A stretch of 64,000 nucleotides of DNA, taken from NCBI GenBank assembly GCA_963742705.1, contig CAVUMZ010000010.1, positions 59,967-123,966 on the forward strand, given 5' to 3'. Position numbers and translations under genes: made by a program. Positions 3,895-28,163 of this stretch are shown in pieces (position 1 is the stretch's first letter; each line of letters opens with the position of its first letter). The notes beneath the pieces were generated by a model that did not search any database, was not told the origin of the DNA, and saw nothing but the letters and a program-made list of their open reading frames with translations. The DNA is from an uncultured Solirubrobacterales bacterium. GTDB taxonomy: Bacteria; Actinomycetota; Thermoleophilia; Solirubrobacterales; Solirubrobacteraceae.

Positions 3895-3923
3895 GCTTCG
3901 AGCCTAGCGCTAAGCTCGCGACC

Positions 3924-4316: not shown

Positions 4317-4327
4317 GGCGCCCGCGG

Positions 4328-6187: not shown

Positions 6188-6198
6188 GCGCGGCGGCC

Positions 6199-8106
6199 TC
6201 AGCCGCCGAGCTTGTACCCGAGCGTGCGCAACCCGGCGATCGCCCGGGCGGCGTCCGCGCCGGCGCTGGTCAGCGCCCGGCCCGCGGCGGCGTAGCCGGA
6301 CTTGTCGTTGGCGGCGGCGGCCGTGGCGGAGCTCGTATAAGCGCGCGCGACCGCCCCGAGCCCGGCTGCGATCTGGGCGGCCGCCTGCGCCACCAGCGGG
6401 TTGGTCGCGGTCGCGGCGACCGCGCGTCCGGCGGCGGCGTAGGCCGCCGCGAGCGCGCGATCGGCGCCGGCCTGGGCGCCCGAGGTCGTCGCCCCGGCGA
6501 GGCGGCTCTCCGCCACCCGCCGGGCCGCGGCGAGCCGCGCCAGGGCGGCTTGCACCTGGGCGGCGAAGCGGGCGTTCGGCCCGAGCGGATAGGCGCTCGC
6601 CCCGACAACCCGCGCCGAGGCGACCACGCGGGCGCAGTCGGCGTCAAATGCGGCGGCGGGTGCCGCCCCCGGCCGGCAGGCGAGGGTGAGGACGCCCTGA
6701 CTCGTCGGCACGACGTACAGCGTCACGGCCCCCGCCAGGCCGCGCGGGCGGAGTCCGACGTAACGCAACGCCTCGAGACCGCCGCCGCCGAGCCGCACCG
6801 GCTGCCCGACCGGCGCCGGTGCCGGCAGCAGGCGCAGGAGCGACGCGGGCAGGAGCGTCGGGCCCGTCGCGGCGACGGTCCCGGCCTCCAGGCGTGACGC
6901 CCCCGCCGACGGCGCGAGGACGACCGCGTTCGCGAACGTGAGGCCCGGGACGGCCGGCTGGACCTGGAGCCGCTGCCAGCCGCTGGGAAAGGAGAGCTCC
7001 AGCGGACCGACCGAGGCCGAGTTCGCGAGCGGCGCCGGCGCCGTCGGGCCGGAAGAGCCGGAGCCGCCGACGACGGCGCCGATGGCCGCGGCGGCGACCA
7101 TCAGCGCGGCGATCAGCGGGGCTGGCGAGCGTCGGCGTGGCGCGGGGGCGGCGGTCGGCTCAGGCGGCGCCGGGCGCACGACCCCGACCGTCTCCTCGGC
7201 AGGGGGGGCTGCGGCCGCCGGAGCGGCCGGCGCCGCCGGCGGAGCGGCGGCCACGGCCTCGACCCGGTGCATGCGCGTGCGGTCGGTCGAGGTCGCCGGG
7301 GCGACGGCGGCGAAGGCCCGGCGCGCCTCGAGCATCAACGCCCCGGCTGACGGATAGCGTTCGCCGGCGTCCTTGGCCATGCCCTTGGCGATCACCGCGT
7401 CAATCGCCCCCGGCAGATCGGGATAGCGGTTGCTGACCTTCGGCGGGGCGACGGTCAGGTGGGCGAAGAGGACGCTGGGCTCCGACGGCCGGGGAAACGG
7501 GACCTCGCCCGTCAGGCACTCGTGGAGCACGCAGCAGAGCGAGTAGACGTCGCTGCGCGCCGTCGCGCCTTCGCCCCGGGCCTGCTCGGGCGAGATGTAG
7601 TCGATCGTGCCGACGAAGTGGCCCGGCTCGGTTAGGAGAGCATCCTCGTCGGAGCCCTTGGTCAGGCCGAAGTCGGCGAGGTAGGCATGGTCGCGGGCGC
7701 CGATCAGGATGTTCTGGGGCTTGACGTCGCGATGGATCAGACCGACGGCGTGGGCGGCATCGAGGGCGTCGGCGACCTGGGTCAGCACCAGGAGCGTGCG
7801 CCGGCGGTCGATCGCACCTTCCAGCACCAGGGCCTTCAACGTCGGGCCCTCGACGAGCCGCATGGCCAGGAAGAGCCCGGCGTCAGTCTCACCGGCCTCG
7901 TAGACCGAGACGATGTGCGGGTGGTCAATCGCCGCCTGGCGCAGACCCTCGCGGCGGAAGCGCTCGCGAAACCCGGCGTCGTCGCTCAGCTCGCCGGTCA
8001 GCACCTTCAGGGCGACGACGCGCTCGAGCGAGAGCTGGGTCGCGCGATACACCGTGCCCATGCCGCCCTCTCCCAAGAGGCCGTCGACCCGGTACCCCCC
8101 GACCAT
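6199..8106 (-). CDS. Membrane-anchored Ser/Thr protein kinase with Pro/Ala-rich linker and extracytoplasmic domain
   Basis: Motifs: MVGGYRVDGLLGEGGMGTVYRA, VALKVL, HRDVKPQNILI, DFGLTK, SPEQ. One TM (LIAALMVAAAAIGAVVGG) follows a Pro-rich linker. The ORF track starts at TTG 8124; I prefer ATG 8106. Confidence 0.9.
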   Translation of the reverse strand: MVGGYRVDGLLGEGGMGTVYRATQLSLERVVALKVLTGELSDDAGFRERFRREGLRQAAIDHPHIVSVYEAGETDAGLFLAMRLVEGPTLKALVLEGAIDRRRTLLVLTQVADALDAAHAVGLIHRDVKPQNILIGARDHAYLADFGLTKGSDEDALLTEPGHFVGTIDYISPEQARGEGATARSDVYSLCCVLHECLTGEVPFPRPSEPSVLFAHLTVAPPKVSNRYPDLPGAIDAVIAKGMAKDAGERYPSAGALMLEARRAFAAVAPATSTDRTRMHRVEAVAAAPPAAPAAPAAAAPPAEETVGVVRPAPPEPTAAPAPRRRSPAPLIAALMVAAAAIGAVVGGSGSSGPTAPAPLANSASVGPLELSFPSGWQRLQVQPAVPGLTFANAVVLAPSAGASRLEAGTVAATGPTLLPASLLRLLPAPAPVGQPVRLGGGGLEALRYVGLRPRGLAGAVTLYVVPTSQGVLTLACRPGAAPAAAFDADCARVVASARVVGASAYPLGPNARFAAQVQAALARLAAARRVAESRLAGATTSGAQAGADRALAAAYAAAGRAVAATATNPLVAQAAAQIAAGLGAVARAYTSSATAAAANDKSGYAAAGRALTSAGADAARAIAGLRTLGYKLGG

Positions 8107-8171
8107 CGTGCCGGACTCGAGCAATGTGGCCGCGATTCTACGCCCCGCCCGCGGCGGCGCGCGGGCGGCGG

Positions 8172-9496: not shown

Positions 9497-10333
9497 ATGA
9501 CCGAGCGACCGGGGGAGCCGCAGCCGGGAGAATTCGTCGGTCCCTACCGGATCGAGTCGGAATTGGGCGTCGGCGGCATGGGCCGCGTCTACAAGGCGCA
9601 GGCGCCCGGGGGCGAGCTGATCGCGCTGAAGATGGTCAAGCCCGACCTGGCGATGGACTCGGTCTTCCGCAAGCGCTTCGAGCGCGAGGCGCGGATCGCC
9701 TCGCAGGTGACCCACCCCCACGTCGTGCCGGTGCTCGACACCGGCGAGCACGAGGGCATCCCCTACCTGACGCAGCGCTTCGTCAACGGGGGTTCACTCG
9801 CCGACCGGCTGGAGAAGGGCTCGCTCGACGTGCCCACGGCGCTGCGGATCTGCGCCGAGACCGCCGCCGGACTCGACGCGCTCTGCGAGCACGGGCTCGT
9901 CCACCGCGACGTCAAGCCGGGGAACGTGCTGCTCGACGAGCACGGCACCGCCTATATCACCGACTTCGGTCTCGCCAAGGACAGCCAGGGGAGCGTGCTG
10001 ACGCGCCCGGGCCAGGCGCTCGGATCGCTCGACTACATGGCGCCGGAGCAGATTCGCGGGGAGGCCGTGGCCGGCTCGGCCGACGTCTACGCGCTCGCCT
10101 GCGTGATGGTCGAGTGCCTCACCGGCAGCCCGCCGTTCGGCGACCGGCAGGGTATGCGCGTGCTCTGGGCCCATCTCCAGGACGACCCGCCGGACCCGTG
10201 TGAGAAGCGCCCGGATCTGCCGGCGGCGCTCGGCCAGGTGATCATCGGGGCGATGCAGAAGGAGCCGGAGGACCGGCCGCAGACGGCGGGCGAGTTCGCC
10301 CAGCAGGCGCTCGGGGCCGCCGGCCTGACCTGA
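9497..10333 (+). CDS. Ser/Thr protein kinase, catalytic domain only (~278 aa)
   Basis: Start at ATG 9497 (MTERPGEPQPGEFVGPYRIESELGVGGMGRVYKA). Motifs: IALKMV, HRDVKPGNVLL, DFGLAK, APEQ. The protein ends right after the kinase fold with no sensor or TM domain. Confidence 0.85.
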   Translation: MTERPGEPQPGEFVGPYRIESELGVGGMGRVYKAQAPGGELIALKMVKPDLAMDSVFRKRFEREARIASQVTHPHVVPVLDTGEHEGIPYLTQRFVNGGSLADRLEKGSLDVPTALRICAETAAGLDALCEHGLVHRDVKPGNVLLDEHGTAYITDFGLAKDSQGSVLTRPGQALGSLDYMAPEQIRGEAVAGSADVYALACVMVECLTGSPPFGDRQGMRVLWAHLQDDPPDPCEKRPDLPAALGQVIIGAMQKEPEDRPQTAGEFAQQALGAAGLT

Positions 10334-10360
10334 CGGCCGCCGGCCGGGCCCGACCAGCGC

Positions 10361-10380
10361 CCGCCGGAGACCGCCGGCGG
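10361..10380. terminator. GC hairpin between convergent genes (possible bidirectional terminator)
   Basis: CCGCCGG-agaccg-CCGGCGG, a 7-bp perfect stem, lies between the kinase stop (10333) and the small TM ORF stop (10419). No U-tract. Confidence 0.25.
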
Positions 10381-10418
10381 CACGCCGCATCCGATCACGC
10401 GAGGTCGGCCACCGGCGC

Positions 10419-10598
10419 TCAGGCCGCGGCCGCGCCGGTCAGAGCCGAGCCGAGCAGGGCGAGGCAGAGCACGAAGAGCAGGATCGCCAGCACGATCAGC
10501 AGCGTCCGGTCGATCCCCCCACCACGGCCCCGGCCGGGGCCGCGACCCGTCCCGGCGTGCCCGGCGGTCCGATCCTCCGATGCGGCGCCCGAATGCAT
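10419..10598 (-). CDS. 59-aa single-pass membrane peptide, hypothetical
   Basis: Hand translation: MHSGAASEDRTAGHAGTGRGPGRGRGGGIDRTLLIVLAILLFVLCLALLGSALTGAAAA*. GC3 is high. Its ATG overlaps the TGA of the upstream cyclase-like gene (TGATG). Below the ORF-track size cutoff. Confidence 0.45.
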   Translation of the reverse strand: MHSGAASEDRTAGHAGTGRGPGRGRGGGIDRTLLIVLAILLFVLCLALLGSALTGAAAA

Positions 10599-11191
10599 CA
10601 GTGCGCCTCCCAGTCGAGGCGGTAGAGCTCGTGCTCGCCGTGGACGCCGCGGAAGTGGACGGCGCCGCGCTCCTCGAAGCGCAGCGACGCGTCGCCGGCC
10701 GTGTAGTCGCGCACCGCGGCCGAGACGAGGATCTCGCCGCCGGCGGCCTGGTCGGCGACGCGGGCGGCGATCACGACGTTGCGGCCGAAGACGTCCTGAC
10801 CGCTTGAGATCACGAAGCCGGTGTGGACCCCGGCGCGCAGCCGCAACCGGCCGACCGGGGCGACCTCGAGCCCCGAGATCGTCCGCTGGAGTCCGATCGC
10901 GCAGCGCAGGGCGGCATGCGAGCTCGAGAAGCTGATCATGACGGCGTCCTGCTCGCCCTTGACGACCTGACCTTCGTGGCTGGCGGCGGCCGCCTCGACG
11001 ACGGCGCGGTGGTTGCGCAACAGCGCGGCGCCGGCGTCGTCCCCGAGCGCGGCCAGAAGCGCCGGGCAGTCGGCGAGCGCTACGAGCAGCAGCGTCACCG
11101 CGCCGTCGGGCGAGCTCATCGCCCCGACGGGGAAGTCGGCGCCGCCGAGGGCGTCGGCGAGCACGTCCAAGGAGGTGGGCTCTCCGGCCAT
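10598..11191 (-). CDS. Stand-alone class III nucleotidyl cyclase homology domain with a substituted catalytic Asn
   Basis: Start at MAGEPTS (ATG 11191, overlapping the upstream stop as TGATG). It aligns by eye to the cyclase core: VTLLLVALADCPAL (for FxDxxGFT), GEQDAVMISF (for GDxxMxxF), GVHTGFV and GRNVVIAARV (for GDTVNxAxR; the Asn is replaced by Val). Confidence 0.7.
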   Translation of the reverse strand: MAGEPTSLDVLADALGGADFPVGAMSSPDGAVTLLLVALADCPALLAALGDDAGAALLRNHRAVVEAAAASHEGQVVKGEQDAVMISFSSSHAALRCAIGLQRTISGLEVAPVGRLRLRAGVHTGFVISSGQDVFGRNVVIAARVADQAAGGEILVSAAVRDYTAGDASLRFEERGAVHFRGVHGEHELYRLDWEAH

Positions 11192-11844
11192 CAGTAGGGG
11201 GGCAGCTCGCCGTACCAACGGCCGAGCAGGCGGAAGGCGGCCCAGAACGCCCGCTTGGCGCGCTCGTCGTCGAGGGCGGTGTCGATGTTGGGGACGTAAA
11301 GGGCGGCCATCGACGGAGTCAGCTCCTGAATCTCGCCCGGATCGGCCTCGAGCTGGCGGCCGAGGGGCAGCTCGAGGTCGTTGAGCACCTCGAGCGCGTC
11401 CTCGCCCATGACGACGACGATCTTCGGCTGGACGATGGCCAGCTCGTCGAGCACCCGGGCGATGCAGGCCGGGTCCGACAGGGCGGTGTCGGGCACGGGG
11501 CACTTGATCGCGAGCGTGCCGTAGACGGTCAGGGGGTCGATGTCGAGCCGGCGCAACGACTTCATCAGGGCGTTGCCGGACCGCCCGTAGAAGGCGACGC
11601 CCTCCTCGATCTCGGCCGGCCGGGGGGCGTACTTGAGCAGGAAGATGTCGGCCTGGGGATGCCCGGAGCCGAGCACCGGCGTCAGGGCCCCGCGGGGGCA
11701 GCCGGTGCAGCCCTGGATCTCTCGCGTCAGCAGGTTCAGCTCGCGGATCGCGCGCTCTAGATACTTCTCGCGGATCTCGTCGTCGATGGCCGGCATGCGC
11801 CCGATCTCTTTTGACCGGGGGTCGGCTTGTCCTTGGCCGTGCAT
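11191..11844 (-). CDS. Uracil-DNA glycosylase superfamily protein (family-4-like Fe-S scaffold) with non-canonical catalytic motifs
   Basis: Four Cys sit at family-4 positions (GCTGC, AIKCPVP, DPACIAR). Motif A reads LKYAPRPAEIEEGVAFYGRSG instead of GEAPGxxEDxxGxPFxGxxG. Motif B reads LYVPNID instead of HPS/HPA. Alternative start at ATG 11796 (MPAIDD). ATG 11844 overlaps the upstream stop (TGATG). Confidence 0.7.
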   Translation of the reverse strand: MHGQGQADPRSKEIGRMPAIDDEIREKYLERAIRELNLLTREIQGCTGCPRGALTPVLGSGHPQADIFLLKYAPRPAEIEEGVAFYGRSGNALMKSLRRLDIDPLTVYGTLAIKCPVPDTALSDPACIARVLDELAIVQPKIVVVMGEDALEVLNDLELPLGRQLEADPGEIQELTPSMAALYVPNIDTALDDERAKRAFWAAFRLLGRWYGELPPY

Positions 11845-13760
11845 CAGGACTTGCGCATCGCCCGGCGCACGCGCCGCTCCCGCCGAGCCCGGCGGGCGCC
11901 CGGGGGCGTGGCCTTGGTTTCGAGGAACTTCAGCGCCTGGACGTACAGAAGACTGGTCGGCTTGGTGACGATGTCGGCGTCGCGCAGCGACTCGAGGAAC
12001 TCGGTCGGCCCGTCGAAGTCGCGCATGCGGATGCGGACCGAGCCGAGGCCGGCGGCGACGTGCGAATCCGAACCGGCACCGGCGATGATCCGGTACTTGG
12101 CGGCAAACCGAGCCGCCTCCTCGTTGAACGATCCGATCGCCACCCGGGGATTGAACACCTCGAGGGCGTCGACATCGTCCAGGATCGTCAGCAGGTGCTC
12201 GTAGTCGGGCACGGCGTGCATGCGGTCGAACGGGTGCGGGACGTAGACGAGGCCGCCCTGGGCCTTGATCTCGGCGACCGTCTCGGCCAGCGTCAGGCCA
12301 CGGGGGATCTTGCGCTCGAGGAAGAGGCCGATTACCTCGCCCTGGCTGGCGGTCTTGACCTCCTCGGCGACGATCACCTTGATTCCGACGGCCTTCGCGG
12401 CGGCCTCGAGCGCGCCGGAGACCTCGTTGTGGTCGGTGATCGCGATCGCGCCGAGGCCCTGCTCGACCGCCGTCGCCAGCAGCACCTCGACGGGCGTGGC
12501 GCAGTCGGGCGAGTGGTCGGTGTGCATGTGCAGGTCGACGTCGATCAGCGGCCGGCCGGAGATCCGCCGGCGCACGTCCGGGTCGCCGGCGGTGTCACGG
12601 CGGCGGGCGGCGACCGCGCCGTAGACGGCCTCGAGCTCGCCGGCGACGCGGTCCCAGCCGAGCTCGGCCCGCAGCGGCCGGGCGGCGGCGCGCAGGCGGT
12701 CGCGCAGCGACCGGTCGGACAGAAGCCGGCCGAGCTGGGCGGCGAGCGTGTCGACGTCGCCCGGCTCGAACAGCAGGCCGCGCTCGCCGGTGGCGAGCAC
12801 CTCGTCGTAGACCGGCGTGCGCGAGGCGAGCGGGACGGCGCCGGCGGCGATCGCGCGCAGCAGCAGGTCGGGGGCGGGGCCGGATCCGTCGGAGGCGCAG
12901 ACGAGCACGTCGACCTCGGCGAGCAGGGCGTCGCGATCGAGCTCGGCCGGGTCGACGAAGCTGACGCGGTCGCGCAGGGAGGCGCGGAGCTGCGCCGAGG
13001 ATCCGCGCGCGGTGACGACGGTCGCCCGCCAGCCCTGCGCTTCGGCCTGGCGGCGGAGGCCGCGGAGGAAGAGCCGCATCGCTCCCCGCTCCTCCTCGTC
13101 GAAGTACGCGATATGGACCGGCTGCTCGTCGACGGATTCCGCGGAGCAGTCCCTGGTGGTCGCGGGCTGGGCGCCGGGCAGGATCACCCGGTAATCGGCC
13201 GGGAATTGGCGGGCCATGATCGCGGCGGTGGCGGCGTAGCTGGCGGTGCGGGCGTCCAGGCGGCCGAAGAACAACTCGACGAAGCGGCGGGCTACCTGGG
13301 TCGAGACGAGCAGGTCGTTGGGGACGTGGAAGCTGCCGATGTTCAGCGAGCGCGAGTGGCGCAGGGCGGCGCTGGCCAGGCTTGGGGCGAACGGCTCGTG
13401 GACGTGGACGAAGTCGAGCGGCACCAGGGTCAGGAGCTCCTCGACCGTGCGGGCGACATCGACCGGGAGCCCGGCCTGGCGGCGGGCGGTCGGGCCGGGG
13501 ACGGCGATCACCTCGCCGGCGGCGAACAGCGAAGGCTCGCCGCCGGCTTCCCCGAGTAGCGCCGCGGGCCGATCGCGGGCGGTGCTCAGGACCTGGCGCG
13601 AGGCGCGCACGAGGCGCGGCGACTCCGACGGGGCGACGATGACGACGCGGTGGCCGCGGCCCGACAACTCGGCGGCGACGCGCTCGACGTAGCGGTTGAG
13701 CTCCGAGCGCATCTCCCACGGGTGGGGCGTCACCTGGGCGATCGAGAAGCGCGGCTCCAT
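11844..13760 (-). CDS. Fusion protein: PimA-like GT4 glycosyltransferase (N-terminal) plus PHP-family metal-dependent phosphoesterase (C-terminal)
   Basis: 638 aa. The N-terminal part has LDFVHVHEPFAPSLASAAL and GSFHVP (compare PimA FDVLHIHEPNAPSL) and a GT-B C-lobe (LFEPGDVD). The C-terminal part has DVDLHMHTDHSPD, IAITDHN, EEV, VYVPHPFD and GSDSH, the PHP metal-ligand pattern. Confidence 0.85.
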   Translation of the reverse strand: MEPRFSIAQVTPHPWEMRSELNRYVERVAAELSGRGHRVVIVAPSESPRLVRASRQVLSTARDRPAALLGEAGGEPSLFAAGEVIAVPGPTARRQAGLPVDVARTVEELLTLVPLDFVHVHEPFAPSLASAALRHSRSLNIGSFHVPNDLLVSTQVARRFVELFFGRLDARTASYAATAAIMARQFPADYRVILPGAQPATTRDCSAESVDEQPVHIAYFDEEERGAMRLFLRGLRRQAEAQGWRATVVTARGSSAQLRASLRDRVSFVDPAELDRDALLAEVDVLVCASDGSGPAPDLLLRAIAAGAVPLASRTPVYDEVLATGERGLLFEPGDVDTLAAQLGRLLSDRSLRDRLRAAARPLRAELGWDRVAGELEAVYGAVAARRRDTAGDPDVRRRISGRPLIDVDLHMHTDHSPDCATPVEVLLATAVEQGLGAIAITDHNEVSGALEAAAKAVGIKVIVAEEVKTASQGEVIGLFLERKIPRGLTLAETVAEIKAQGGLVYVPHPFDRMHAVPDYEHLLTILDDVDALEVFNPRVAIGSFNEEAARFAAKYRIIAGAGSDSHVAAGLGSVRIRMRDFDGPTEFLESLRDADIVTKPTSLLYVQALKFLETKATPPGARRARRERRVRRAMRKS

Positions 13761-13836
13761 CCAGAGCAGAGCATATGGTCAGCCGTCGGCGGCGTTGCGC
13801 GGCGGCGGCGCCGTCCGTCCGCCGGCGCCCCGGGGC

Positions 13837-14406
13837 TCAGCCGATCCGCAGCGACGCGAGCAAGGCGCGGTACTGCGCCGGCGGGGTCGTGTGGCTGCCC
13901 TTGATGATGTAGCCGAGCACGTAGCCGGCGTGCCTGGCGCCGATCACGCGCAGGAAGAACGTGCCCTTGTGGCCGCCGATGCCGGCGATCAGCGCGTCGT
14001 GGGCCGGGAAGCCCTCATATGTCGTCGTCACCTCGTCCGCGACCTGCCCGCCGGACGAGCTGGCGGCGCCGTTGATCGTGCTGGCGATCGCCGCGTCGTC
14101 GAGCGTCGTCGCGATGGAGCCGACCTCGGTCGCCGCGTCGCCGTGGCGGGAGAGGTAGAAGACGAGCTTGACGTCAGAGCCGGCGTACCGGAACGACGCC
14201 GCGAGGCGCTGCGGCTTCCCGGGCAGGACGCCGACCGACAAGCCGCGACGGCGAAAGCTGACGAGCCCGGACCCGCTCGGCAGCCCGGCGTAGGCCGTCG
14301 GCAGGCCGGCGACCGGCTTGGCCTTGCCCCCGCCCCCGCCCCCGCACCCGGCCGCCGACACAACGAGCGCGACGACACCGGCGGCGAGACGAATGTGTAG
14401 CGGCAC
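13837..14406 (-). CDS. Lipoprotein, hypothetical
   Basis: A GTG at 14406 gives VPLHIRLAAGVVALVVSAAGC-GGGGGGK, a signal peptide with a lipobox Cys. The ORF track's ATG at 14490 would add 28 non-signal residues. Confidence 0.6.
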   Translation of the reverse strand: MPLHIRLAAGVVALVVSAAGCGGGGGGKAKPVAGLPTAYAGLPSGSGLVSFRRRGLSVGVLPGKPQRLAASFRYAGSDVKLVFYLSRHGDAATEVGSIATTLDDAAIASTINGAASSSGGQVADEVTTTYEGFPAHDALIAGIGGHKGTFFLRVIGARHAGYVLGYIIKGSHTTPPAQYRALLASLRIG

Positions 14407-14493
14407 GACCGACCTTCCGTTCGTAGGGCCGGGGTGGCGGGACCGGGGCGAAATGCCCACGCGGTCCCAGCGCCCGGCGCTTGCAACCACGGC

Positions 14494-15678
14494 TCAGTCG
14501 GCGAGCGCCTCCGCTGAGGTCGGCGCCGCGGCCTTCGTGCCCGGCTTGCCGCCGTACTGGGCGATGAAGCCCTCCGTCGCCGCGCGCGCCTGGTCGTCGG
14601 GGCGCTGGTTGTGGGGCGACTTCATCAGGTAGGAGCTCGGCCCGTCGATCTGGCCGCCGAGGCCGTGGTTGAGCGCCAGCTTGCAGCAGCGAACGGCGTC
14701 GATCACGATGCCGGCCGAGTTCGGCGAATCCCAGACCTCGAGCTTCAGCTCCAGGTTCAGCGGCACGTCGCCGAACGCCTGGCCCTCGACTCGGATGTGG
14801 GCCCACTTGCGGTCGGTCAGCCACGGGACGTAGTCCGACGGCCCGATGTAGACGTCCTCGGCCGGCAGCTTGTGGTCCATGATCGAAGTCACGGCGTTGG
14901 TCTTGGAGATCTTCTTCGACTCCAGCCGCTCGCGTTCGAGCATGTTGTAGAAGTCCATGTTGCCGCCGACGTTCAGCTGCGAGGTGCGCAGCATCTTCAC
15001 GCCGCGGTCGGCGAACAGGCGCGCCAGCGTCCGGTGGACGATCGTCGCCCCGACCTGCGACTTGATGTCGTCGCCGACGATGGGCAGGCCGGCGTTGCGA
15101 AAGCGCTTGTCCCAGTAGTCCTCGCGGGCGATGAAGACCGGGATGCAGTTGACGAAGCCGCAGCCGGCCTCGAGCACCTGCTCGACGTACCACTTGGTCG
15201 CCTGCTCGGAACCGACCGGCAGGTAGGAGACGACGACGTCGGTGTGGGTGTCCTTGAGGATGCCGACGATGTCGGCCGTCTCGCCCGGCGCCTTCTCGAT
15301 CTTCTGCTTGAGGTACTTGCCGAGCCCGTCGTGCGTCATGCCCCGGTGGACGGTGACCCCGGTCTGGGCCGGTACCTCGGCGAACTTGATCGTGTTGTTC
15401 TGGCCCGACCAGATCGCCTCGCCCAGATCCTTGCCGACCTTCTCCCGGTCGATGTCGAAGGCCGCGGTGAACTCGATGTCGCGGATGTGGTAGCCGCCCA
15501 GGTCGACGTGCATCAGGCCCGGGACCTGGAGGTCGGCGTCGGCGTCGCGGTAGTGGTGGACGCCCTGGACGAAGCTGTTGGCGCAGTTGCCGACGCCGAT
15601 GATCGCCACCCGGACCTTGTCCGGTTGATAGCGCGACGCGCCGTTGCTGCTGGAAGCCTTGCCGTTGGTCTTGCTCAC
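14494..15678 (-). CDS. ino1: myo-Inositol-1-phosphate (inositol-3-phosphate) synthase
   Basis: 394 aa with a GTG start. [18 protein letters not shown] Rossmann start, then [27 protein letters not shown] and NVGGNMDF are typical of bacterial/archaeal MIPS. Confidence 0.95.
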
Positions 15679-15753
15679 GTTTGGGTGATCCCTTCTTGAA
15701 TGCGTTGCCTCCAGCTACACGACTGGCGACGTTCGATTACACCCGCGGGGTGG

Positions 15754-16317
15754 TCAGGCCGAGATGGAGAGCGCCTTGCGGACGTGGATGATCCGCTGGA
15801 GCACCGTGATCGCGCTCAGCGCCGCCAGCACGTAGACCGCGGGCTCGAGCAGCGTGAAGTTCCCCAGCGACGCCCCGCGGGCGAAGACGAGCCCGGCTGA
15901 CAGGATCACGACGCGGACCGCCCGGTTGGCGATGCCGACCTTGCACTCGACGCCGAGCGCCTCGGCCCGGGCCCGGGTGTAGGAGACCATCAATGACGCC
16001 AGCACGGCGATCACGACCGCCGCGGTCGCCGCCTGATCCTGCTCGCGGACGAACTGGATCGCGACCGCCGTCAGCACGATCCCCTCCTCGCACCGGTCGA
16101 GCGTCGAGTCCAGGAAGGCCCCGAACGGCGTCCCCTTGCCCGACATCCGCGAGTAGCGGCCGTCGAGCGTGTCCATGATCGAGCCGACGATGAAGGCCAC
16201 GCCGCCGAGGAAGAAGTACTGCTGCCAGACGAGCACGGCCGCGACGACGTTCAGCGCCAGGCCCGTCAGGGAGATCGCGTTCGGCGTCAGCCGCGACTCG
16301 ATCAGCAGGCTGCGCAT
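15754..16317 (-). CDS. CDP-alcohol phosphatidyltransferase (phosphatidylinositol-phosphate synthase-like)
   Basis: The motif DTLDGRYSRMSGKGTPFGAFLDSTLD matches DGx2(A/S)Rx8Gx3Dx3D, and the protein is multi-TM. Start at ATG 16317 (MRSLLIES). An alternative GTG at 16386 overlaps the upstream stop (GTGA). The rest of ORF 15754..16899 is out of context. Confidence 0.85.
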   Translation of the reverse strand: MRSLLIESRLTPNAISLTGLALNVVAAVLVWQQYFFLGGVAFIVGSIMDTLDGRYSRMSGKGTPFGAFLDSTLDRCEEGIVLTAVAIQFVREQDQAATAAVVIAVLASLMVSYTRARAEALGVECKVGIANRAVRVVILSAGLVFARGASLGNFTLLEPAVYVLAALSAITVLQRIIHVRKALSISA

Positions 16318-16382
16318 GGTCGACCGCGAGTCGCCCCCTCGAGCCGGGCGCGCCGGCGCGCGGGGCGGCGCTTCGAGCGGGC

Positions 16383-17153
16383 TCACGTGGCGCCGACCGG
16401 CCGGCCGAAGTTCCAGGCCTGCGGGCGCAGCCGGCCGAGCCGGCGCGCGACGTAGGCCGAGAGAGCCGCGGTCAGCGCGCCGAGGATCGCGTCGGCCAGG
16501 AAGTGGTTGGCGGTGGCCACCGTCACGAAGGTGATGATGAAGGGGTAGCAGAACCAGAACGCCCGCACCACCCGGTGGCGCGTCAGCCGGGCCAGCGGCC
16601 AGCCGAGCATCAGCGCGAAGGCGACGTGCATCGACGGGATCGCCGCGTAGGGGTTGAACAGGGCGTTGACCGACGCGGTCGTCGCCGGGACGCCCGTGAA
16701 GTCGGAGACCGAGTCGAAGAAGCCCCACTCCGGCAGGAAGCGCGGCGGCGCGGTGGGGAAGACGAAGTAGCCGACGAGCGCGACGCCCATCGCCACCATC
16801 AGCATGTTGCGCACGAAGTAGAAGCTCCGGTTGTGGAACATGTACAGGTAGAGCAGCACCCCGATCAGCACCGAGCTCTGCGCCGTCAGGTAGAGCCACG
16901 TCGCCGCCTCCATCAGCAGATGGCTGCCGGCCGCCCAGGTCTGGACGCTCGGCTCGACGAAGAAGTGCAGTGTCCGCTCGACGCCGATCAGCTCGCGGGC
17001 GTGCTGGAAGGCCACCGCGGTGCGCGAGTCAGCGAGCCCCCGCACGACGCGGTAGAGCATGTAGGCGCCGCCGAACAGCAGCAGCTGGCGGACGATGTCT
17101 AACCAACCGTGCGGCAGGACACGCGCCCGGATTGAGCCGGGTCGGATCAGCAT
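16383..17153 (-). CDS. PAP2 superfamily membrane protein (PAP2_3 / AUR1-inositolphosphotransferase-like)
   Basis: 256 aa, polytopic. AIPSMHVAF (C2-like S-x-H) and ATANHFLADAI (C3-like Hx3D) match the PAP2 catalytic motifs in the arrangement seen in PAP2_3 proteins. Confidence 0.7.
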   Translation of the reverse strand: MLIRPGSIRARVLPHGWLDIVRQLLLFGGAYMLYRVVRGLADSRTAVAFQHARELIGVERTLHFFVEPSVQTWAAGSHLLMEAATWLYLTAQSSVLIGVLLYLYMFHNRSFYFVRNMLMVAMGVALVGYFVFPTAPPRFLPEWGFFDSVSDFTGVPATTASVNALFNPYAAIPSMHVAFALMLGWPLARLTRHRVVRAFWFCYPFIITFVTVATANHFLADAILGALTAALSAYVARRLGRLRPQAWNFGRPVGAT

Positions 17154-17168
17154 CGGAGAACCGGGATC

Positions 17169-18494
17169 CTATCCTGCGCCGCGGCCGCGATCACCAGTCG
17201 TGGCCGCCGACCCCACCGGCCCGGCCCCCACCGCCCGCGCCGGGCACGCCCGATCCTGCTCCGAAAGGATTCCGCCGGCGAGCCGGGCCACCACGCGCAC
17301 GCGCCCCGGCCCGGCGGCGGTGACCTCCGTGAAGCCCCCCGGGCCCGCCCGCACGCAGCCGCTCCAGTGGTCGCTGTAGCGCAGCCGCACCAGGCTGGTC
17401 CCGGCCCGGGCGAAGCGCAGCGTGAACCCGTTCGGTCCGAGCTCGGTCAGCGTCGCCGGCGCCGTGGCCAGCGCCGTCGCGCCGACGACGGCGTAGACGC
17501 GCCAGTGGGCCAGCCGCGCGACCGGCCGCAGGTATGGCTGCCCCGCCCTGATCAGCGCCGCCTCGGCCCGGGCCGAGTAGTCGAGCTCCGCGTCGGGCAG
17601 CGCGACCAGGGAGACCGCGGTCGACCGCAGCCAGGCCCCGTAGGCCGCGGCGCTCAGACGCGGGCGGTAGAAGAGCGGGTTGTCGGCGATGTCGAGCTGG
17701 CGCTCCCAGCCGCGCGCGAGGGCGACGTGCACGGCCAGCAGCGCCGCCTCCCAGTGCTGGCGCGTGAACGGGACCTCGATCCGCCCGGGCGCCCGGCCGG
17801 CCAGATAGCGCTCGAGCGGGGCGTAGTAGGCCGCGCCGGTCGACGGATCGCCGGCCGCGGTGACGACGTCGCGGATCGGCGCCTGCAGCTGCCAGTAGGC
17901 CAACGGCAGGACGAGCACGGCGAGCACGCGGCGGTCGCGGACCGCGAGCACGGCCAGGGGACCGGCGAACAGCGCGCCGAGCCGCACAGCGTTGCCGCCG
18001 ACCGGGGTGTGCAGGACGAACGCCGCCACGCAGACCAGCGCGTAGAGCGCGGCGGCCGGGCGCAGCCGCGGGGCGGCCGCGGCGAGGATCGCGATCAGCG
18101 CGAGCGCCGGCCAGAAGCTCGAGGCGGCGAACGGCTCGTAGCCGGGGGTCGGGAAGGCGAGCCCGAGCGCCGCGGCCGGGATCAGCGCCGCCAGGGCGAG
18201 CGGGAAGCGCCGCTGGGACACGGCGGCGAGGCCGAGGAAGGCCCCGGCGAGCGGGCTGGCGAGGCCGCTGAGCGCGGCCAGGATCAGCGCGGCCGGCGTC
18301 CGGCCGTGGCGGGCGGCCAGGAGCGCCCCGAGACCGATCGCCACGCCCAGCGTGAAGGCCACGCGTCCGGAGCCGAGCGAGATCCCGATCCCGGCGGCGA
18401 ACCACAGCGACGCGGCCGGGCGCTCGACGAGGCGGTCCCACAGCGCGGCGGCGGCGACGGCGGCCGTCGCGGCCAGCAGCCGCGCGCCGAGCAC
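17169..18494 (-). CDS. Polytopic membrane protein with C-terminal extracytoplasmic domain (putative GT-C-type glycosyltransferase); N-terminus uncertain
   Basis: A 441-aa ORF from GTG 18494 with about 9 or more hydrophobic helices and then a soluble C-terminal domain. The same frame stays open with high GC3 and a protein-like sequence (..LIWRPPSADLAAALYRVGQFSRDGFVLYDPQWYAGYDPLGYSLLLGPLGS) for about 80 codons upstream. There is no ATG, GTG or TTG in that stretch. Confidence 0.7.
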   Translation of the reverse strand: MLGARLLAATAAVAAAALWDRLVERPAASLWFAAGIGISLGSGRVAFTLGVAIGLGALLAARHGRTPAALILAALSGLASPLAGAFLGLAAVSQRRFPLALAALIPAAALGLAFPTPGYEPFAASSFWPALALIAILAAAAPRLRPAAALYALVCVAAFVLHTPVGGNAVRLGALFAGPLAVLAVRDRRVLAVLVLPLAYWQLQAPIRDVVTAAGDPSTGAAYYAPLERYLAGRAPGRIEVPFTRQHWEAALLAVHVALARGWERQLDIADNPLFYRPRLSAAAYGAWLRSTAVSLVALPDAELDYSARAEAALIRAGQPYLRPVARLAHWRVYAVVGATALATAPATLTELGPNGFTLRFARAGTSLVRLRYSDHWSGCVRAGPGGFTEVTAAGPGRVRVVARLAGGILSEQDRACPARAVGAGPVGSAATTGDRGRGAG

Positions 18495-18711
18495 GGAGCC
18501 GAGCGGGCCGAGCAGCAGGCTGTATCCGAGCGGGTCGTAGCCGGCGTACCACTGCGGGTCATAGAGGACGAACCCGTCACGGCTGAACTGTCCGACCCGG
18601 TAGAGCGCGGCCGCGAGATCGGCGCTCGGCGGCCGCCAGATCAGGTAGCCGGCGGCGATCGCCGCCGCCAGCCCGGGCCCGGCGGCCCATGCCGGGACAC
18701 GCCGGAACGCG

Positions 18712-19563
18712 TCAGGCCTCGAGGAAGGCGACGACGCGGTCGATCAGGTCGGGCTGATCGAGCCACGGATAGTGGCCGGCGTCGGGCGCCCGGACGACCT
18801 CCGTCTCGCCGCCGAGCGCCGCGGCGTAGGCGTCGGCGAACTCCGCCGGGAAGTACGGGTCACGCTCGCCCCAGACGATCAGGGCCGGGGCCTCGATCTC
18901 CGCCAGGCGGGCACCAGCCTGGGCGAGCATGTCGGGCGGCGAGCGGCGGTGGAGCTTGATCGTCGCCCGCTGGGTCCCGTAGTCGAAGTGGTCGAGCACC
19001 GACTTGATGTGCTCCTCCGGCAGCGGGTTGACGTTGACCTCGCGGCCCAGCCGGCGCACCAGTCGCTCGCTCAACGCCCCCATCGCCAGCTCCCCGGCCC
19101 CCGGCCGGCGCCACGTCCGGGCGAGCCGGTGCCACCGGTAGCCGGGCAGCAGCGGCACGGCGTCGATCACGACGAGGCGGGCGATCCGCTCGGGGAAGCG
19201 CTGGGCGAAGGCCAGGGCGACCGCGCCGAAGTCGTGGACGACGAGGTTCAGCCGGTCGATCTGCTGGAGCTCGAGGAAGCGCTCGATGAAGCGGTCGTAG
19301 CCGCCGATGGTGTAGTCGAAGCTGTTCGGCTTGCCCGACCGGCCGAAGCCCGGCAGGTCCGGGGCGATGCCGCCGCCGAGCGCGAGGAACGGCGTCCAGT
19401 CGTCGGCGTTGGTCGGCGTTCCGTGGACGTAGAGCGTCGGCGGGCCGGCGGCGGTCGCGGCGCTGCGCCAGAAGATCGGCAGCCCGTCGATGTCGACCCG
19501 CTCGCCGTCGAAGCTGGCCGGGACCCCGTCGATCGCGGCGCGGTGTTCCTCGACGGCGGGCAT
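18712..19563 (-). CDS. Alpha/beta hydrolase (haloalkane dehalogenase / epoxide hydrolase-like)
   Basis: 283 aa. Motifs: LYVHGTPTN, PDLPGFGRS, an Asp nucleophile elbow VVHDFGA, and a C-terminal GHYPWLDQP. Confidence 0.85.
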   Translation of the reverse strand: MPAVEEHRAAIDGVPASFDGERVDIDGLPIFWRSAATAAGPPTLYVHGTPTNADDWTPFLALGGGIAPDLPGFGRSGKPNSFDYTIGGYDRFIERFLELQQIDRLNLVVHDFGAVALAFAQRFPERIARLVVIDAVPLLPGYRWHRLARTWRRPGAGELAMGALSERLVRRLGREVNVNPLPEEHIKSVLDHFDYGTQRATIKLHRRSPPDMLAQAGARLAEIEAPALIVWGERDPYFPAEFADAYAAALGGETEVVRAPDAGHYPWLDQPDLIDRVVAFLEA

Positions 19564-21446: not shown

Positions 21447-22373
21447 TCAGGCGCCGACGCCGGCGGATTGCGGCCGCGGCGACGCGCTCGGCTTGGCGAG
21501 CTTGGCCTTCTGCTTGTCACGGTCGATCAGGACGACGTCCCAGGCCAGGCCGACCTTGGCGAAGATCTGGATCAGCCAGCCCGACGGATCGAGCTCGTAC
21601 CAGCGCAGGCCGTGACGGGCCGACCGCGGGAAGGCATGGTGGTTGTGGTGCCATGACTCGCCGAGCGTCGGCAGCGACAGCCAGAAGACGTTGGTCGAGA
21701 AGTCGTCGGTCTTGAAGCGCCGGGACCCGAAGAAGTGGCAGACCGAGTTGACGCTCCAGGTGACGTGGTGGATCAGGAAGATCCGCACCAGGCCACCCCA
21801 CAGCAGCGCCTCGAGGCCGCCCCGCAGCGTCCCGCTCCAGACGAGGCCGGCGACGAACGGGACGGCGAGCGTCGCGACGGTCAACTGGAGGAAGTGCCGG
21901 TGGATCCAGCGCAGGCTCGGATCATCGAGCAGATCCGGACAGTACCGGCGCTTCTGCGCCTGGCCGTTGGTCTCCCACAGCCAGCCGACGTGGGCGTGCC
22001 AGAGGCCGCGGATCATGCCGCCGACGCCCTTGCCCTGACCGGCATGCGGTGAGTGCGGGTCGCCCTCCTCGTCGGTGAACGCGTGGTGCTTGCGGTGGTC
22101 GGCGACCCAGTCGAGCACCGGGCCCTGGACGGCCAGCGAGCCCATAACGGCGAGCAGGTTGCGCAGTGGCTTGTACGTCTCGAATGCCCGGTGGGTCAGC
22201 ATGCGGTGGAACCCGATCGTCACGCCGAAGGCGCTGAAGACGTACATGAAGGCGAAGATCACGAGGTCCCGCGGGCGCAGCCAGTCGTTCCACGCGAGCG
22301 TCGCCGCGGCGATCAGCCCGAGGAAGGGGATGGTCACGGCGGCGATGTTGACGTTCCGTTCGGCTCTGGTCAT
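21447..22373 (-). CDS. Membrane fatty-acid (acyl-CoA/acyl-lipid) desaturase
   Basis: Start at MTRAERN (ATG 22373). The three His boxes are HRMLTH, HRKHH and HNHHAF, with four TM segments in the typical order. Confidence 0.9.
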   Translation of the reverse strand: MTRAERNVNIAAVTIPFLGLIAAATLAWNDWLRPRDLVIFAFMYVFSAFGVTIGFHRMLTHRAFETYKPLRNLLAVMGSLAVQGPVLDWVADHRKHHAFTDEEGDPHSPHAGQGKGVGGMIRGLWHAHVGWLWETNGQAQKRRYCPDLLDDPSLRWIHRHFLQLTVATLAVPFVAGLVWSGTLRGGLEALLWGGLVRIFLIHHVTWSVNSVCHFFGSRRFKTDDFSTNVFWLSLPTLGESWHHNHHAFPRSARHGLRWYELDPSGWLIQIFAKVGLAWDVVLIDRDKQKAKLAKPSASPRPQSAGVGA

Positions 22374-22407
22374 GTTGTGAAGCCTAGACGCACATTCACG
22401 TCGGTTC

Positions 22408-23643
22408 TTGGCACAATCTCCAATTGTGGAGAGCAGTTTTGGCAAAATCGAACAAGATCTCGCGTCGTCGCAGCCGTGGGAGGCGCTCGACCCCGGGCTC
22501 GCCGCGCTGCTGCTGCCCGAGCTGGCCGGGCTGGCCCAGGAGATCACGGCGGCCGTCGGCACCTACGTTCCCGAGTACCGCCGGGCGATGCACGGCGCCT
22601 TCGGCCGGACCGTGCGCACCGCGATCGAGGAGGCATTGCGCCAGTTCGTCGAGCAGATGGGCCGCCCGGCCCCTGGTCCGGCCGCCCGACCCGGGCGCAG
22701 CGTCTACGTCGAGCTCGGCCGCGGGGAGCTGCGCGCCGGCCGCGGCCTTGACGCCCTCCAGGCCGCCTACCGGCTCGGTGCCCGGATCGCCTGGCGGCGC
22801 CTGGCGAGCACAGCCGCCCGCGGCGGCGACATCGATCCCGAGCAGCTCACGCTCCTGGCCGAGTCGATCTTCGCCTACATCGACGAGCTGTCGGCCGAGT
22901 CGACCGAGGGCTACGCCAGCGAGCAGGCGGCCCGCGCCGGCGAGCGCCAGGGCCGCCGCCAGCACCTGATCCGCCTCCTCGTGGAGGGTGCCCCGTCCGA
23001 CGAGGTCGAGCAGGCGGCGGCGGCGGTCGGCTGGGAGCTCCCGCGCCGGCTCGCCGTGCTCGCCTGCGACTACTTCGACGCCGAGCGGCTCGCCGCCCGC
23101 GTCGGGCACGGGGCGGTCGCCGCGGCCATCGACGGCTGCAGCTGCCTGCTGCTGCCCGATCCCGACGCACCCGGTCGCCGCGACGCGCTGCTCGCGTCCC
23201 TGCGCCGAACGACCGCGGCGATCGGCCCGACGGTCGCGCCGTCCGACGCCCGCCGGAGCTTCGCCCGGGCCCGCGCCTGCCTGCGCCTACAGGCTGCCGG
23301 CACGCTGACGGGGTCGGGGCTGATCGTCGCCGGCGAGCAGCTCGCGGCGCTCATCCTCCACAACGACGAGACCCTCCTGGGCGAGCTTGCCGACCGTCGC
23401 CTGGCGCCGCTCGCCGAGCTCACGCCCGGCGCCGCCGAGCGGCTCCATGCGACCCTGCGCGAATGGCTGCGCTGGCAGGGCAGCGTGCCCGACGTCGCCG
23501 CCGCCCTGCACGTGCACCCGCAGACCGTCCGCTACCGTCTGACCCGCCTGCGCGAGCTGTTCGGTGCGGCGCTCGAGGATCCCGAGTCCCGCTTCGAGCT
23601 GATGCTCGCCACCCGGGCGCGGGTGTCCGAGCCCGTCGCCTGA
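22408..23643 (+). CDS. PucR-family transcriptional regulator
   Basis: The C-terminal [44 protein letters not shown] is the PucR C-terminal signature. Start is TTG 22408 or GTG 22426. Divergent from the desaturase gene. Confidence 0.8.
22417..22432. promoter_or_regulatory. Inverted repeat in the desaturase/PucR divergent region (possible operator)
   Basis: TCTCCA-ATTG-TGGAGA. It is flanked by a direct repeat, TTGGCACAATC (22408) and TTGGCAAAATC (22439), in an AT-richer patch that overlaps both candidate PucR start codons. Confidence 0.25.
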
Positions 23644-23716
23644 GGCTCGGGGCGGGCCGCCCGGCCCCCCGCCCGGCGACCGACCCCCCGGCGTGCGCCC
23701 GACCGGCCGGCCAGGC

Positions 23717-23756
23717 TTGTGGACCTGGGCGAGATCTTCTATACTCAGACTCAGAT
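23717..23756 (+). promoter_or_regulatory. dnaK promoter (-35 TTGTGG, -10 TATACT) with flanking GATCT..AGAT inverted repeat
   Basis: TTGTGG (23717-22), 17 nt, TATACT (23740-45). GATCT (23733-37), N15, AGAT (23753-56). The same GATCTnCTATA..N..AGAT block occurs at the clpB promoter. SD AAGGAG at 23774-23779. Confidence 0.4.
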
Positions 23757-23789
23757 TTTTTCTCAAGGACAGTAAGGAGTCCGGACAAC

Positions 23790-25690
<1,901 letters not shown>

Positions 25691-25691
<1 letters not shown>

Positions 25692-26335: not shown

Positions 26336-26336
26336 G

Positions 26337-27895: not shown

Positions 27896-28163
27896 CCACC
27901 AGGAGCCGACGCAGCGCCACGGTCGACCGGCGAGGGTCAGCGGCGTTACCGACCGGCCGACGAACGGGCGCGCCGCGGCCGACGTCGGGGACGCAAGCGA
28001 CCCCCGCGTCGATGATGGACGCAATCGGCCGGGCCGCGGACGACTGGTATCGTTGGCGGGCGCCCAGGCTCGAGTTCATCCCCCGGTGGGGTCGATCGCC
28101 TGGCGCGGAAGTCGCGGCCGCCTGGGCCGCCCGACCCTGAGCCCTCGACGAGAGAGAACAAGC

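Follow-up and report, generated by a model that had tools for sequence, protein, structure and literature searches.

Which gene removes the surplus phosphate from phosphatidylinositol phosphate (PIP) in actinobacteria? The question is raised by a cluster of genes on a 64,000-nucleotide stretch of DNA from an uncultured soil bacterium of the Solirubrobacterales (class Thermoleophilia; contig CAVUMZ010000010.1; "the window" below means this whole stretch), in which a CDP-alcohol phosphatidyltransferase and the inositol phosphate synthase Ino1 are followed by a 638-residue protein that joins a homologue of the glycosyltransferase PimA to a PHP domain of the phosphoesterase type. I propose, with a probability of roughly 0.5, that the PHP domain is a PIP 3-phosphatase, and that the PimA-like half of the fusion may serve, in the clade to which the window protein belongs, as a non-catalytic module for the lipid headgroup or the membrane.

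The enzyme responsible for this step was termed unidentified in 2010, 2015, 2022 and July 2026, and experimental support exists only for an enzyme of the PgpA family from Bacteroides (PMC4634129, PMC9246714, bioRxiv 10.64898/2026.07.15.738315). Clarke et al. (2015) wrote of an "as-yet-unidentified" PIP phosphatase (PMC4634129), and Heaver et al. (2022), who described the PgpA-family protein BT_1525 of Bacteroides, knew of no earlier bacterial example (PMC9246714). A preprint of July 2026 still calls the actinobacterial enzyme "as-yet unidentified" and proposes EphE, an α/β-hydrolase that lacks the nucleophile and would act in a complex with PimA, offering no biochemical proof (bioRxiv 10.64898/2026.07.15.738315). 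The premise of the original prediction for this DNA, that no gene had been firmly assigned to the phosphatase, therefore holds for Actinobacteria. The lipids concerned do occur in relatives of the window: phosphatidylinositol (PI) is the chief polar lipid of Conexibacter woesei (PMC3035278), and spots of both PI and phosphatidylinositol mannosides (PIMs) on thin-layer chromatography are reported for one Solirubrobacter species (PMC10722151).

The genes and domains on which the proposal rests are these (GT, glycosyltransferase; AF2, AlphaFold2):

11844-13760, minus strand: GT4-PHP fusion, 638 residues (Pfam GT4 domains, PHP and PHP_C)
12591-13760, minus strand: PimA-homologous GT-B (GT4) half of the fusion, residues 1-390 (Pfam, hhalign, PDB profile, Foldseek)
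11961-12548, minus strand: PHP domain of the fusion, residues 405-600, candidate PIP 3-phosphatase (Pfam PHP and PHP_C)
11847-11960, minus strand: C-terminal helices and Arg-rich tail of the fusion, residues 601-638 (AF2, charge, consensus)
14494-15678, minus strand: Ino1 (PF01658, 128 bits; TIGR03450, 542 bits)
15754-16317, minus strand: CDP-alcohol phosphatidyltransferase, 187 residues from the ATG at 16317 (PF01066; DGx2SRx8Gx3Dx3D)

Every gene named in the original prediction lies on the minus strand at the place given for it, and the motifs quoted there (FVHVHEPFAPSL, HMHTDHS, DHN, HP, DSH, PSMH, HFLAD and DGx2SRx8Gx3Dx3D) can all be read in the translations.

That a phosphatase should be needed at all follows from the nature of the transferase. 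Its best PDB matches are the PIP synthases of Renibacterium (RsPIPS, 5d91, 6e-21), Mycobacterium tuberculosis (MtPgsA1, 6h53, 2e-17) and M. kansasii (1e-16), and an alignment with PgsA1 shows that the equivalents of the M. tuberculosis residues S132, R155 and R195 are conserved. The arginine pair R155 and R195 binds the phosphate of inositol phosphate (PMC4634129). In NCBIfam the protein scores 142 bits with the AIP synthase model NF040950 (cutoff 180) and 134 bits with the PIP synthase model NF045883 (cutoff 170), in both cases short of the cutoff. The earlier assignment to the PIP-synthase type is upheld by the nearest solved structures and the phosphate-binding arginines. A transferase of this type, arginine pair included, requires a phosphatase step after it. 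The compatible-solute pathway through DIPP synthase was considered and rejected, the transferase matching PIP synthases at 1e-17 to 6e-21 as against 4e-7 for IPCT/DIPPS. Ino1, a myo-inositol-1-phosphate (D-inositol-3-phosphate) synthase, reaches its 542 bits with TIGR03450 below that model's cutoff of 638.

The fusion itself is a genuine single open reading frame (ORF). Pfam places Glyco_transf_4 and Glycos_transf_1 at residues 22-376, PHP at 409-475 and PHP_C at 544-594, and a protein identical to that of the window is already in the database. The 120 best listed relatives, at 66-93% identity, all combine GT4, PHP and PHP_C in 623-665 residues. By tblastn, with one genome per species, the fusion was recovered as one ORF in at least 585 stretches of Thermoleophilia, and the best 80 of these 585 matches all come from Solirubrobacterales, Thermoleophilaceae, Conexibacter, Baekduia or unclassified Actinomycetota. 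An exhaustive search of representatives added further full-length fusions at 34-44% identity, some of which carry the names Gaiellaceae or "Thermoleophilia bacterium". An assembly or frameshift artefact is ruled out by a reading frame that stays whole across hundreds of independent assemblies.

How much of the cluster travels with the fusion? Gene neighbourhoods were compared by searching the fetched loci for the window proteins with tblastn. Transferase, Ino1 and fusion follow one another in this order in 70 of 71 assessable loci, the sole exception running off its contig, and Ino1 directly precedes the fusion in the same proportion (70/71), an ORF for a lipoprotein-like product being inserted between them in the window. 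The gaps within the trio are short or negative (at L082 the transferase and Ino1 overlap by 4 nucleotides), and the trio is kept even around fusions only 35-40% identical to that of the window: around P0143 and the Gaiellaceae fusion P0299 a gene for a PAP2_3 (AUR1-like) membrane protein is present as well, whereas around P0146 and P0145 neither this gene nor that of the polytopic membrane protein of the window adjoins it. Of 58 loci, 53 have the PAP2_3 gene, 48 the polytopic membrane protein and 48 an α/β-hydrolase. The conserved unit is thus the PIP-synthase-type transferase, Ino1 and the GT4-PHP fusion; the other three genes are frequent but dispensable. The "supercluster" of inositol-phospholipid genes originally described was overstated, its invariant members being three only.

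One locus departs from this pattern in an instructive way. On L086, a metagenomic contig of 1.3 kb (1-1304), the end of Ino1 is followed after 7 nucleotides by a stand-alone PHP gene of 226 codons and then by a gene resembling uracil-DNA glycosylase (UDG). The stand-alone protein (P0257) is 46% identical to the PHP half of the window fusion, and no GT half stands between it and Ino1, which indicates that the GT half can be dispensed with while the adjacency of Ino1 and PHP stays. Other apparent stand-alone PHP genes were uninformative, P0286 lying on L087 in an assembly rich in split genes and P0254 having too little flanking sequence.

Some further features of these loci deserve mention in their own right. 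A second stand-alone PHP/PHP_C gene, of 229 codons and with a product that shares about 30% identity with the fused PHP domain, lies on the minus strand at L084:15327-16016, 5 kb downstream of the fusion and adjoining a YjbQ gene; it is a paralogue. The two junctions of the fusion, with Ino1 on one side and the UDG-like gene on the other, are insertion hot spots at several loci, L008, L010, L012 and L014 among them. In the window the insertion at the first junction is the lipoprotein gene (13837-14406), at L085 one junction is occupied by a TetR regulator and the second by a restriction-modification pair (7364-7963, 9783-12079), and elsewhere 1-4 kb of unrelated DNA parts Ino1 from the fusion. 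At L087:4142-6325 a call of 727 residues merges CDP-OH_P_transf with Inos-1-P_synth, probably through an indel artefact, given the many split genes there, and the Ino1 call at L085:5845-7317 has an N-terminal extension of about 100 residues with a faint match to HicB.

Within the fusion the PHP half is the part under strongest constraint. It matches PF02811 at 48.2 bits (cutoff 26.4) and PF13263 at 41.3 bits (cutoff 21.3), and the full metal-ligand pattern attributed to it (HxH, D, DH, E, H, DxH) is present without exception: D409, H411, H413, D419, H444, E467, E475, H509, D565 and H567 are invariant in 55 fusions, and H416 and H515 are conserved in at least 90%. Across 49 fusions, columns conserved to 90% or more make up 17.6% of the PHP half as against 2.3% of the GT half. 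Identity to the window protein falls from 87% in close relatives to 58% in distant ones for PHP, from 68% to 31% for the N-terminal domain of the GT half and from 59% to 27% for its C-terminal subdomain, which is the fastest-evolving part of the protein. An AF2 model of the PHP domain alone has a predicted local distance difference test (pLDDT) score of 94.1, and its top Foldseek matches are all PHP proteins: the PHP domain of RNase AM, TM0559, BVU_3505, PsfC, BAD_1165 and Cv1693, at template modelling (TM) scores of 0.55-0.69, with profile matches in agreement. What the matches settle is the fold and the integrity of the active site, not the substrate. The best of them in sequence and structure, TrpH/YciV (RNase AM) and Cv1693/BAD_1165, share the barrel and the metal ligands, but identity is only about 17-23%, the window domain is shorter and lacks their insertion, and they act on nucleotides or RNA ends. 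BAD_1165 and Cv1693, which the search tools label generically as putative phosphoesterase and amidohydrolase, I take to be 3',5'-bisphosphonucleotide (pAp) 3'-phosphatases, which would remove a phosphate from a secondary alcohol on a ring.

The PHP barrel is followed by a basic tail. AF2 predicts helices at 604-617 and 620-637, the last 39 residues (600-638) carry a net charge of +11 whereas the PHP core carries -11, and the consensus ARRARRxRRVRRAxRKS is kept in the close clade. Such a tail may dock the protein to the membrane.

A soluble substrate for the PHP domain, either inositol monophosphate or a nucleotide of the pAp type, would leave PIP to be dephosphorylated by something else. The stand-alone PHP gene directly after Ino1 at L086 would suit such an enzyme, as would the nearest PHP structures, whose proteins are soluble (one of them, RNase AM, goes by the name of 5'-3' exoribonuclease); histidinol-phosphate phosphatases, too, are PHP enzymes acting on small molecules. 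However, an inositol phosphate phosphatase encoded in this operon would draw on the very substrate of the PIP synthase, and that synthase, with its arginine pair for inositol phosphate retained, does not belong to the type that uses free inositol. The domain is, moreover, fused in almost all lineages to a derivative of a PI-binding enzyme and ends in a strongly basic tail, so I regard a soluble substrate as unlikely.

What, then, is the other half of the fusion? In a phmmer search with the GT half PimA ranks first (1.9e-12). A profile of 55 sequences run against PDB finds PimA at E 1.5e-52 and 182 bits, the next entry, 7qsg, following at 84 bits (E 8e-23); the sequence table calls it a D-inositol 3-phosphate glycosyltransferase, the fold table the mannosyltransferase ManT of M. 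hassiacum. With the same profile MshA of Corynebacterium glutamicum reaches about 64 bits and PimB' 41 bits. By hhalign residues 1-363 of PimA are aligned at a probability of 99.9%, and an AF2 model (pLDDT 89.7, predicted TM score 0.87) has PimA structures 4n9w and 2gej as its best Foldseek matches, at TM scores of 0.80-0.81 normalised to the target. The fold is GT-B, as in PimA, the GDP-mannose:PI α-1,2-mannosyltransferase, the homology runs over the full length, and HVHEPFAPSL in the fusion resembles HIHEPNAPSL in PimA, His118 included. To judge by these comparisons the N-terminal half is clearly derived from PimA, as had been claimed. An MshA-like inositol phosphate glycosyltransferase, with PHP as the missing MshA2 phosphatase, was considered and rejected: MshA structures 3c48/3c4q score about 64 bits against 182 for PimA, and the NCBIfam MshA model covers only the C-terminal 84 residues, at 22 bits.

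Descent from PimA is one thing and activity another. Three independent alignments (phmmer, MAFFT and hhalign) agree on the mapping of residues, and from PimA to the window protein G15G16 has become S19E20, R196 has become F220, K202 G226, E274 G294 and E282 R302, while H118 (H145) and R201 (R225) are kept. The EX7E motif formed by Glu274 and Glu282 is accordingly absent, and the Gly loop (G16), Arg196 and Lys202, which serve the diphosphate, are all replaced. In GT4 enzymes G16, R196 and K202 grip the donor diphosphate, E282 contacts the ribose hydroxyls of the donor (a Glu-to-Ala change at the equivalent position kills the activity of ManT), and E274 is part of the GT-B signature, its equivalent in PimB' being described as strictly conserved in GT4 (PMC9883506, PMC2988379). 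The same losses run through the window clade. Among the 120 closest listed relatives the E274 column never holds E (0/120), the E282 column holds A 54 times, R 46 times, E 11 times and D 5 times, the R196 column is always hydrophobic and the K202 column is A, G or P, while the histidine at H118 is kept in 119 of 120 and the arginine at R201 in all 120. A column as free to vary as that of E282 is one in which ribose binding is under no constraint. The stretch aligned with PimA residues 77-81 (RKVKK) is not basic in the window protein. Canonical binding of a nucleotide sugar seems to have been lost from the GT half here, which by its residues is probably inactive as a transferase.

A working bifunctional enzyme, in which the GT4 half mannosylates PI or PIP in the manner of PimA and PHP removes the phosphate before or after, must be weighed against these losses. 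Homology to PimA over its full length, retention of H118 and of the arginine at PimA position 201, and the PIM spots from a Solirubrobacter species (PMC10722151) would agree with it, and such an enzyme probably exists in relatives (see below). For the window protein, however, all five of the changes listed above stand in its way, both glutamates matter in GT4 (PMC9883506, PMC2988379), and neither column is held in the closest relatives, in a subdomain that evolves faster than any other part of the fusion; judged on its residues, a bifunctional window protein is improbable. With donor-binding and catalytic residues missing from it and from its 120 relatives, the GT half is probably not the "next pathway enzyme" that the original prediction made of it. 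Yet at 59-68% identity among close relatives, and with conserved His and Arg residues that lie mostly in its N-domain together with an Arg ladder (R225, R229, R233), it is still under selection and so has some function; docking to the headgroup or to the membrane is what I infer.

The wider family places this loss in perspective. In a Gaiellaceae-type group (n=45) E274 is E in 7 members and E282 is E in all 45, R196 is deleted, K202 is lost and H118 is kept in 35 of 45. In a deeper Thermoleophilia subgroup around P0146, hereafter g1 (n=44), E274 is E in 41 and D in 3, E282 is E in 42 and D in 2, R196 is R, K202 is K or R and H118 is H in all 44. The g1 proteins (from L082/L083 and 43 relatives) are 600-730 residues long, 43-72% identical to P0146 and named "Thermoleophilia bacterium"; they have the motifs LGGEWxxxxxxE and RGDxRK/R, and their trio stands without adjoining PAP2_3 and membrane protein genes. 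The family spans intact, half-degenerate and degenerate PimA domains. The g1 proteins are likely, from their residues, to be true bifunctional PimA-PHP enzymes, and the ancestor would have been a working PimA-PHP enzyme. As the fusion partner derives from the PI-binding PimA and the catalytic set is present in 44 of 44 g1 members, this is a real fusion of pathway neighbours. The Rosetta-stone argument for the function of PHP accordingly stands at the level of the family, where g1 combines a full PimA set with the same PHP domain and the same operon, and fails for the window protein taken by itself.

The identities of the domains, their patterns of conservation, the catalytic residues lost or kept and the order of the genes are direct observations; the substrate, the phosphatase activity, an association with the membrane and a non-catalytic role for the GT half are what the scheme proposed here adds to them. 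Ino1 would turn glucose-6-phosphate into 1L-myo-inositol-1-phosphate, the CDP-alcohol transferase would make PIP, and the PHP domain of the 638-residue protein would cleave the remaining monoester phosphate through its His/Asp/Glu metal centre to give PI. In the window clade the PimA half would transfer no sugar; together with the Arg-rich C-terminal helix, it would place the phosphatase on the membrane or the inositol phosphate headgroup. In g1 fusions dephosphorylation and the first glycosylation would both probably be carried out by one protein. The PAP2_3 and polytopic membrane proteins would be optional, probably acting on PI at the outer face.

The PAP2_3 protein was the other candidate within the cluster, and it is listed here with the remaining genes:

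11191-11844, minus strand: UDG-superfamily gene (PF03167, 44 bits), whose ATG shares one base with the TGA of the fusion
13837-14490, minus strand: lipoprotein-like ORF, with its likely start at GTG 14406 (lipobox VSAAGC)
16383-17153, minus strand: PAP2_3 (AUR1-like) integral membrane protein (PF14378, 134.7 bits; PSMH, NHFLAD)
17169 to about 18690, minus strand: polytopic membrane protein (no family match)
18712-19563, minus strand: α/β-hydrolase resembling haloalkane dehalogenases and epoxide hydrolases (Abhydrolase_1, 80 bits)

Could PAP2_3 be the PIP phosphatase, as PgpB is for phosphatidylglycerol phosphate (PGP), with the GT4-PHP fusion in some other envelope or nucleotide-sugar role? 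Its superfamily includes lipid phosphate phosphatases, its gene immediately precedes that of the transferase in 53 of 58 loci, and motifs C2 (S-x-H, PSMH) and C3 (H-x3-D, NHFLAD) are present by direct reading, which bears out its description as an AUR1-like protein with SMH and Hx3D motifs. On the other hand, at least 5 of 58 loci, and those of the distant fusions P0146 and P0145, have the trio with no adjoining PAP2_3 gene, and the protein's score of 134.7 bits with PF14378 (cutoff 27) stands against 22 bits for generic PAP2. Its sole NCBIfam match is to phosphoinositol-dihydroceramide synthase, at 28 bits against a cutoff of 480. In enzymes of this family the active site points outward, whereas PIP is made in the cytoplasm. 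Absence of PAP2_3 from some loci that bear the trio favours PHP over it; I consider PAP2_3 a poor candidate for the phosphatase and more likely to use PI at the outer face, in which, speculatively, it might work with the neighbouring membrane protein. The nomination of PHP as the PIP phosphatase is supported in part. Very improbable is a linkage that merely reflects historical synteny, with the fusion acting outside inositol lipids, for although the same range of genomes also keeps such unrelated neighbours as the UDG-like gene, a TRAM methyltransferase and the DnaK operon, the GT half is PimA-derived by a lead of about 100 bits over the next solved GT4 protein, the trio stays tight and co-directional even where its flanks differ, and PHP still abuts Ino1 when the GT half is gone.

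Several points nonetheless weigh against a PIP 3-phosphatase. The solved PHP relatives act on nucleotides or nucleic acids rather than lipids, and the likeness to them is limited (TM 0.55-0.69). The stand-alone PHP gene after Ino1 at L086 fits a soluble inositol-monophosphate phosphatase equally well. The UDG-like gene and the TRAM (tRNA) methyltransferase are neighbours as faithful to the trio as its members are to one another, so part of the conservation is plain synteny, which by itself proves little in a region where gene order is conserved in general. Elsewhere in the genome there may be a phosphatase of the PgpA or EphE type, or a canonical PimA, the searches having covered the 64-kb window and flanks of about 20 kb: no match to the PgpA family was found among the cluster proteins, the 38 window proteins scanned against Pfam or the flanks, no second GT4 protein among those 38, and no second, canonical PimA in the window or the flanks. 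Finally, binding of the headgroup or membrane by the GT half is a conjecture.

How does this arrangement compare with known systems? In the mycobacterial pgsA1-patA-pimA-Rv2609c operon, as here, a PimA-type gene lies downstream of the PIP synthase gene. The window differs in that its PimA homologue has a C-terminal PHP domain, Ino1 lies inside the operon, and no patA-like acyltransferase or Rv2609c-like gene was found among the window proteins scanned. The reaction proposed for PHP, from PIP-diacylglycerol (PIP-DAG) to PI-DAG, is that of BT_1525 of B. thetaiotaomicron, which is likewise clustered with myo-inositol phosphate synthase and PIP synthase (PMC9246714); BT_1525 has genetic and lipidomic support and the PgpA fold, whereas the window candidate is a PHP barrel. 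EphE (Rv3670), a protein of the epoxide-hydrolase family, is a candidate for the same step, coupled to PimA by a predicted complex where the proteins here are fused (bioRxiv 10.64898/2026.07.15.738315). Its superfamily differs from PHP, and its elbow reads His121-Ala122 where the hydrolase of the window cluster has the Asp-bearing HDFG. That hydrolase finds no support as an EphE equivalent, the Asp nucleophile being kept and the gene dispensable.

Fusions of GT-B transferases to a phosphatase of the same pathway are familiar from OtsA-OtsB, SPS-SPP and MpgS-MpgP, in which a HAD-type phosphatase follows the transferase and works on its soluble product. The window protein, by contrast, combines a degenerate transferase half with a phosphatase of the PHP type, which would act on a lipid. 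More tentatively than for the PHP assignment itself, I suggest that, with PgpA and the proposed EphE as the first two, PHP may be the third of three unrelated solutions to this step, one which began in a bifunctional enzyme and later, in Solirubrobacterales, came to be carried by a dead targeting pseudo-glycosyltransferase.

With a PimA homologue and an intact phosphoesterase joined in one protein throughout the class, encoded directly after a PIP synthase and Ino1, there is a concrete and testable candidate for the missing step. The natural series of intact, half-degenerate and fully degenerate PimA domains on the same phosphatase bears on how a glycosyltransferase becomes a non-catalytic module and on which residues of PimA serve the PI headgroup. 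If the proposal is true, the annotations "glycosyltransferase" and "PHP domain-containing protein" could be corrected in hundreds of Thermoleophilia genomes. The literature searched shows no paper tying a PHP domain to phosphatidylinositol, and nothing relevant on PHP domains with glycosyltransferases or on the acceptor-site residues of PimA.

Among the accessory genes, the polytopic membrane protein has about 8-9 hydrophobic segments followed by a soluble domain of about 240 residues. Neither the single sequence (Pfam, NCBIfam and PDB) nor a 25-sequence profile (PDB and Pfam) gave any match. The topology is compatible with the earlier label "GT-C-like", which these searches leave without support. 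At least 1391 homologues are known, every one of them annotated "hypothetical" and lacking a Pfam domain; they form an orphan family, a companion of the inositol-lipid cluster, with invariant motifs including PSADLAA, W(D/N)xxW(Y/F)xGHH, EGGxEPF and RGWERQxD. The start of the gene in the window is anomalous, the conserved N-terminal region of about 65 residues (…AAGPGLAAAIAAGYLIWRPPSADLAAALYRV…, 18494-18714) lying upstream of the first in-frame start, GTG 18494. An ATG at 18690 is one base out of frame: ATGGGCC is read where ATGGCC would yield MAAGPGL…. Either one nucleotide has been inserted, through an error or by a real mutation, or the start is an unusual one. The database copy is a truncated call of 441 residues, its relatives having 500-530.

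The α/β-hydrolase heads the cluster, just beyond the range covered by the original prediction, and travels with it in the 48 of 58 loci given above. Its best PDB matches are haloalkane dehalogenases, and its elbow, VVHDFG, holds H109-D110 with the Asp nucleophile present. The lipoprotein-like ORF has one N-terminal hydrophobic segment, a lipobox and no Pfam match, and no tblastn match at E<=1e-8 was found in the first 80 related loci; the lipoprotein listed originally is therefore real as a lipobox-bearing ORF and not part of the conserved unit. The UDG-like gene lies downstream of the fusion in nearly all loci, distant ones included, the junction in the window reading CTGATGC, and spacing in the cluster ranges from this 1-nucleotide overlap up to a gap of about 76 nucleotides. 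Models of family-4 UDG score it far below their cutoffs. With four cysteines (CTGC…KC…AC) and KYAPRP, where family 4 reads GEAPG, it may represent a divergent glycosylase subfamily and is probably unrelated in function to the trio.

The G+C content of the window is about 72%, and its closest relatives are Solirubrobacteraceae and other Thermoleophilia. The remainder of the 64 kb is housekeeping in character, with the DnaK operon, MMPL, ClpB, purine synthesis and Ser/Thr kinases. Within 2572-8124 and 21447-30386 there are two Ser/Thr protein kinases (one with a GAF domain), a CHASE2 adenylate/guanylate cyclase, a membrane fatty-acid desaturase, a PucR-type regulator, a DnaK-GrpE-DnaJ-MerR (HspR-like) operon and an MMPL transporter.

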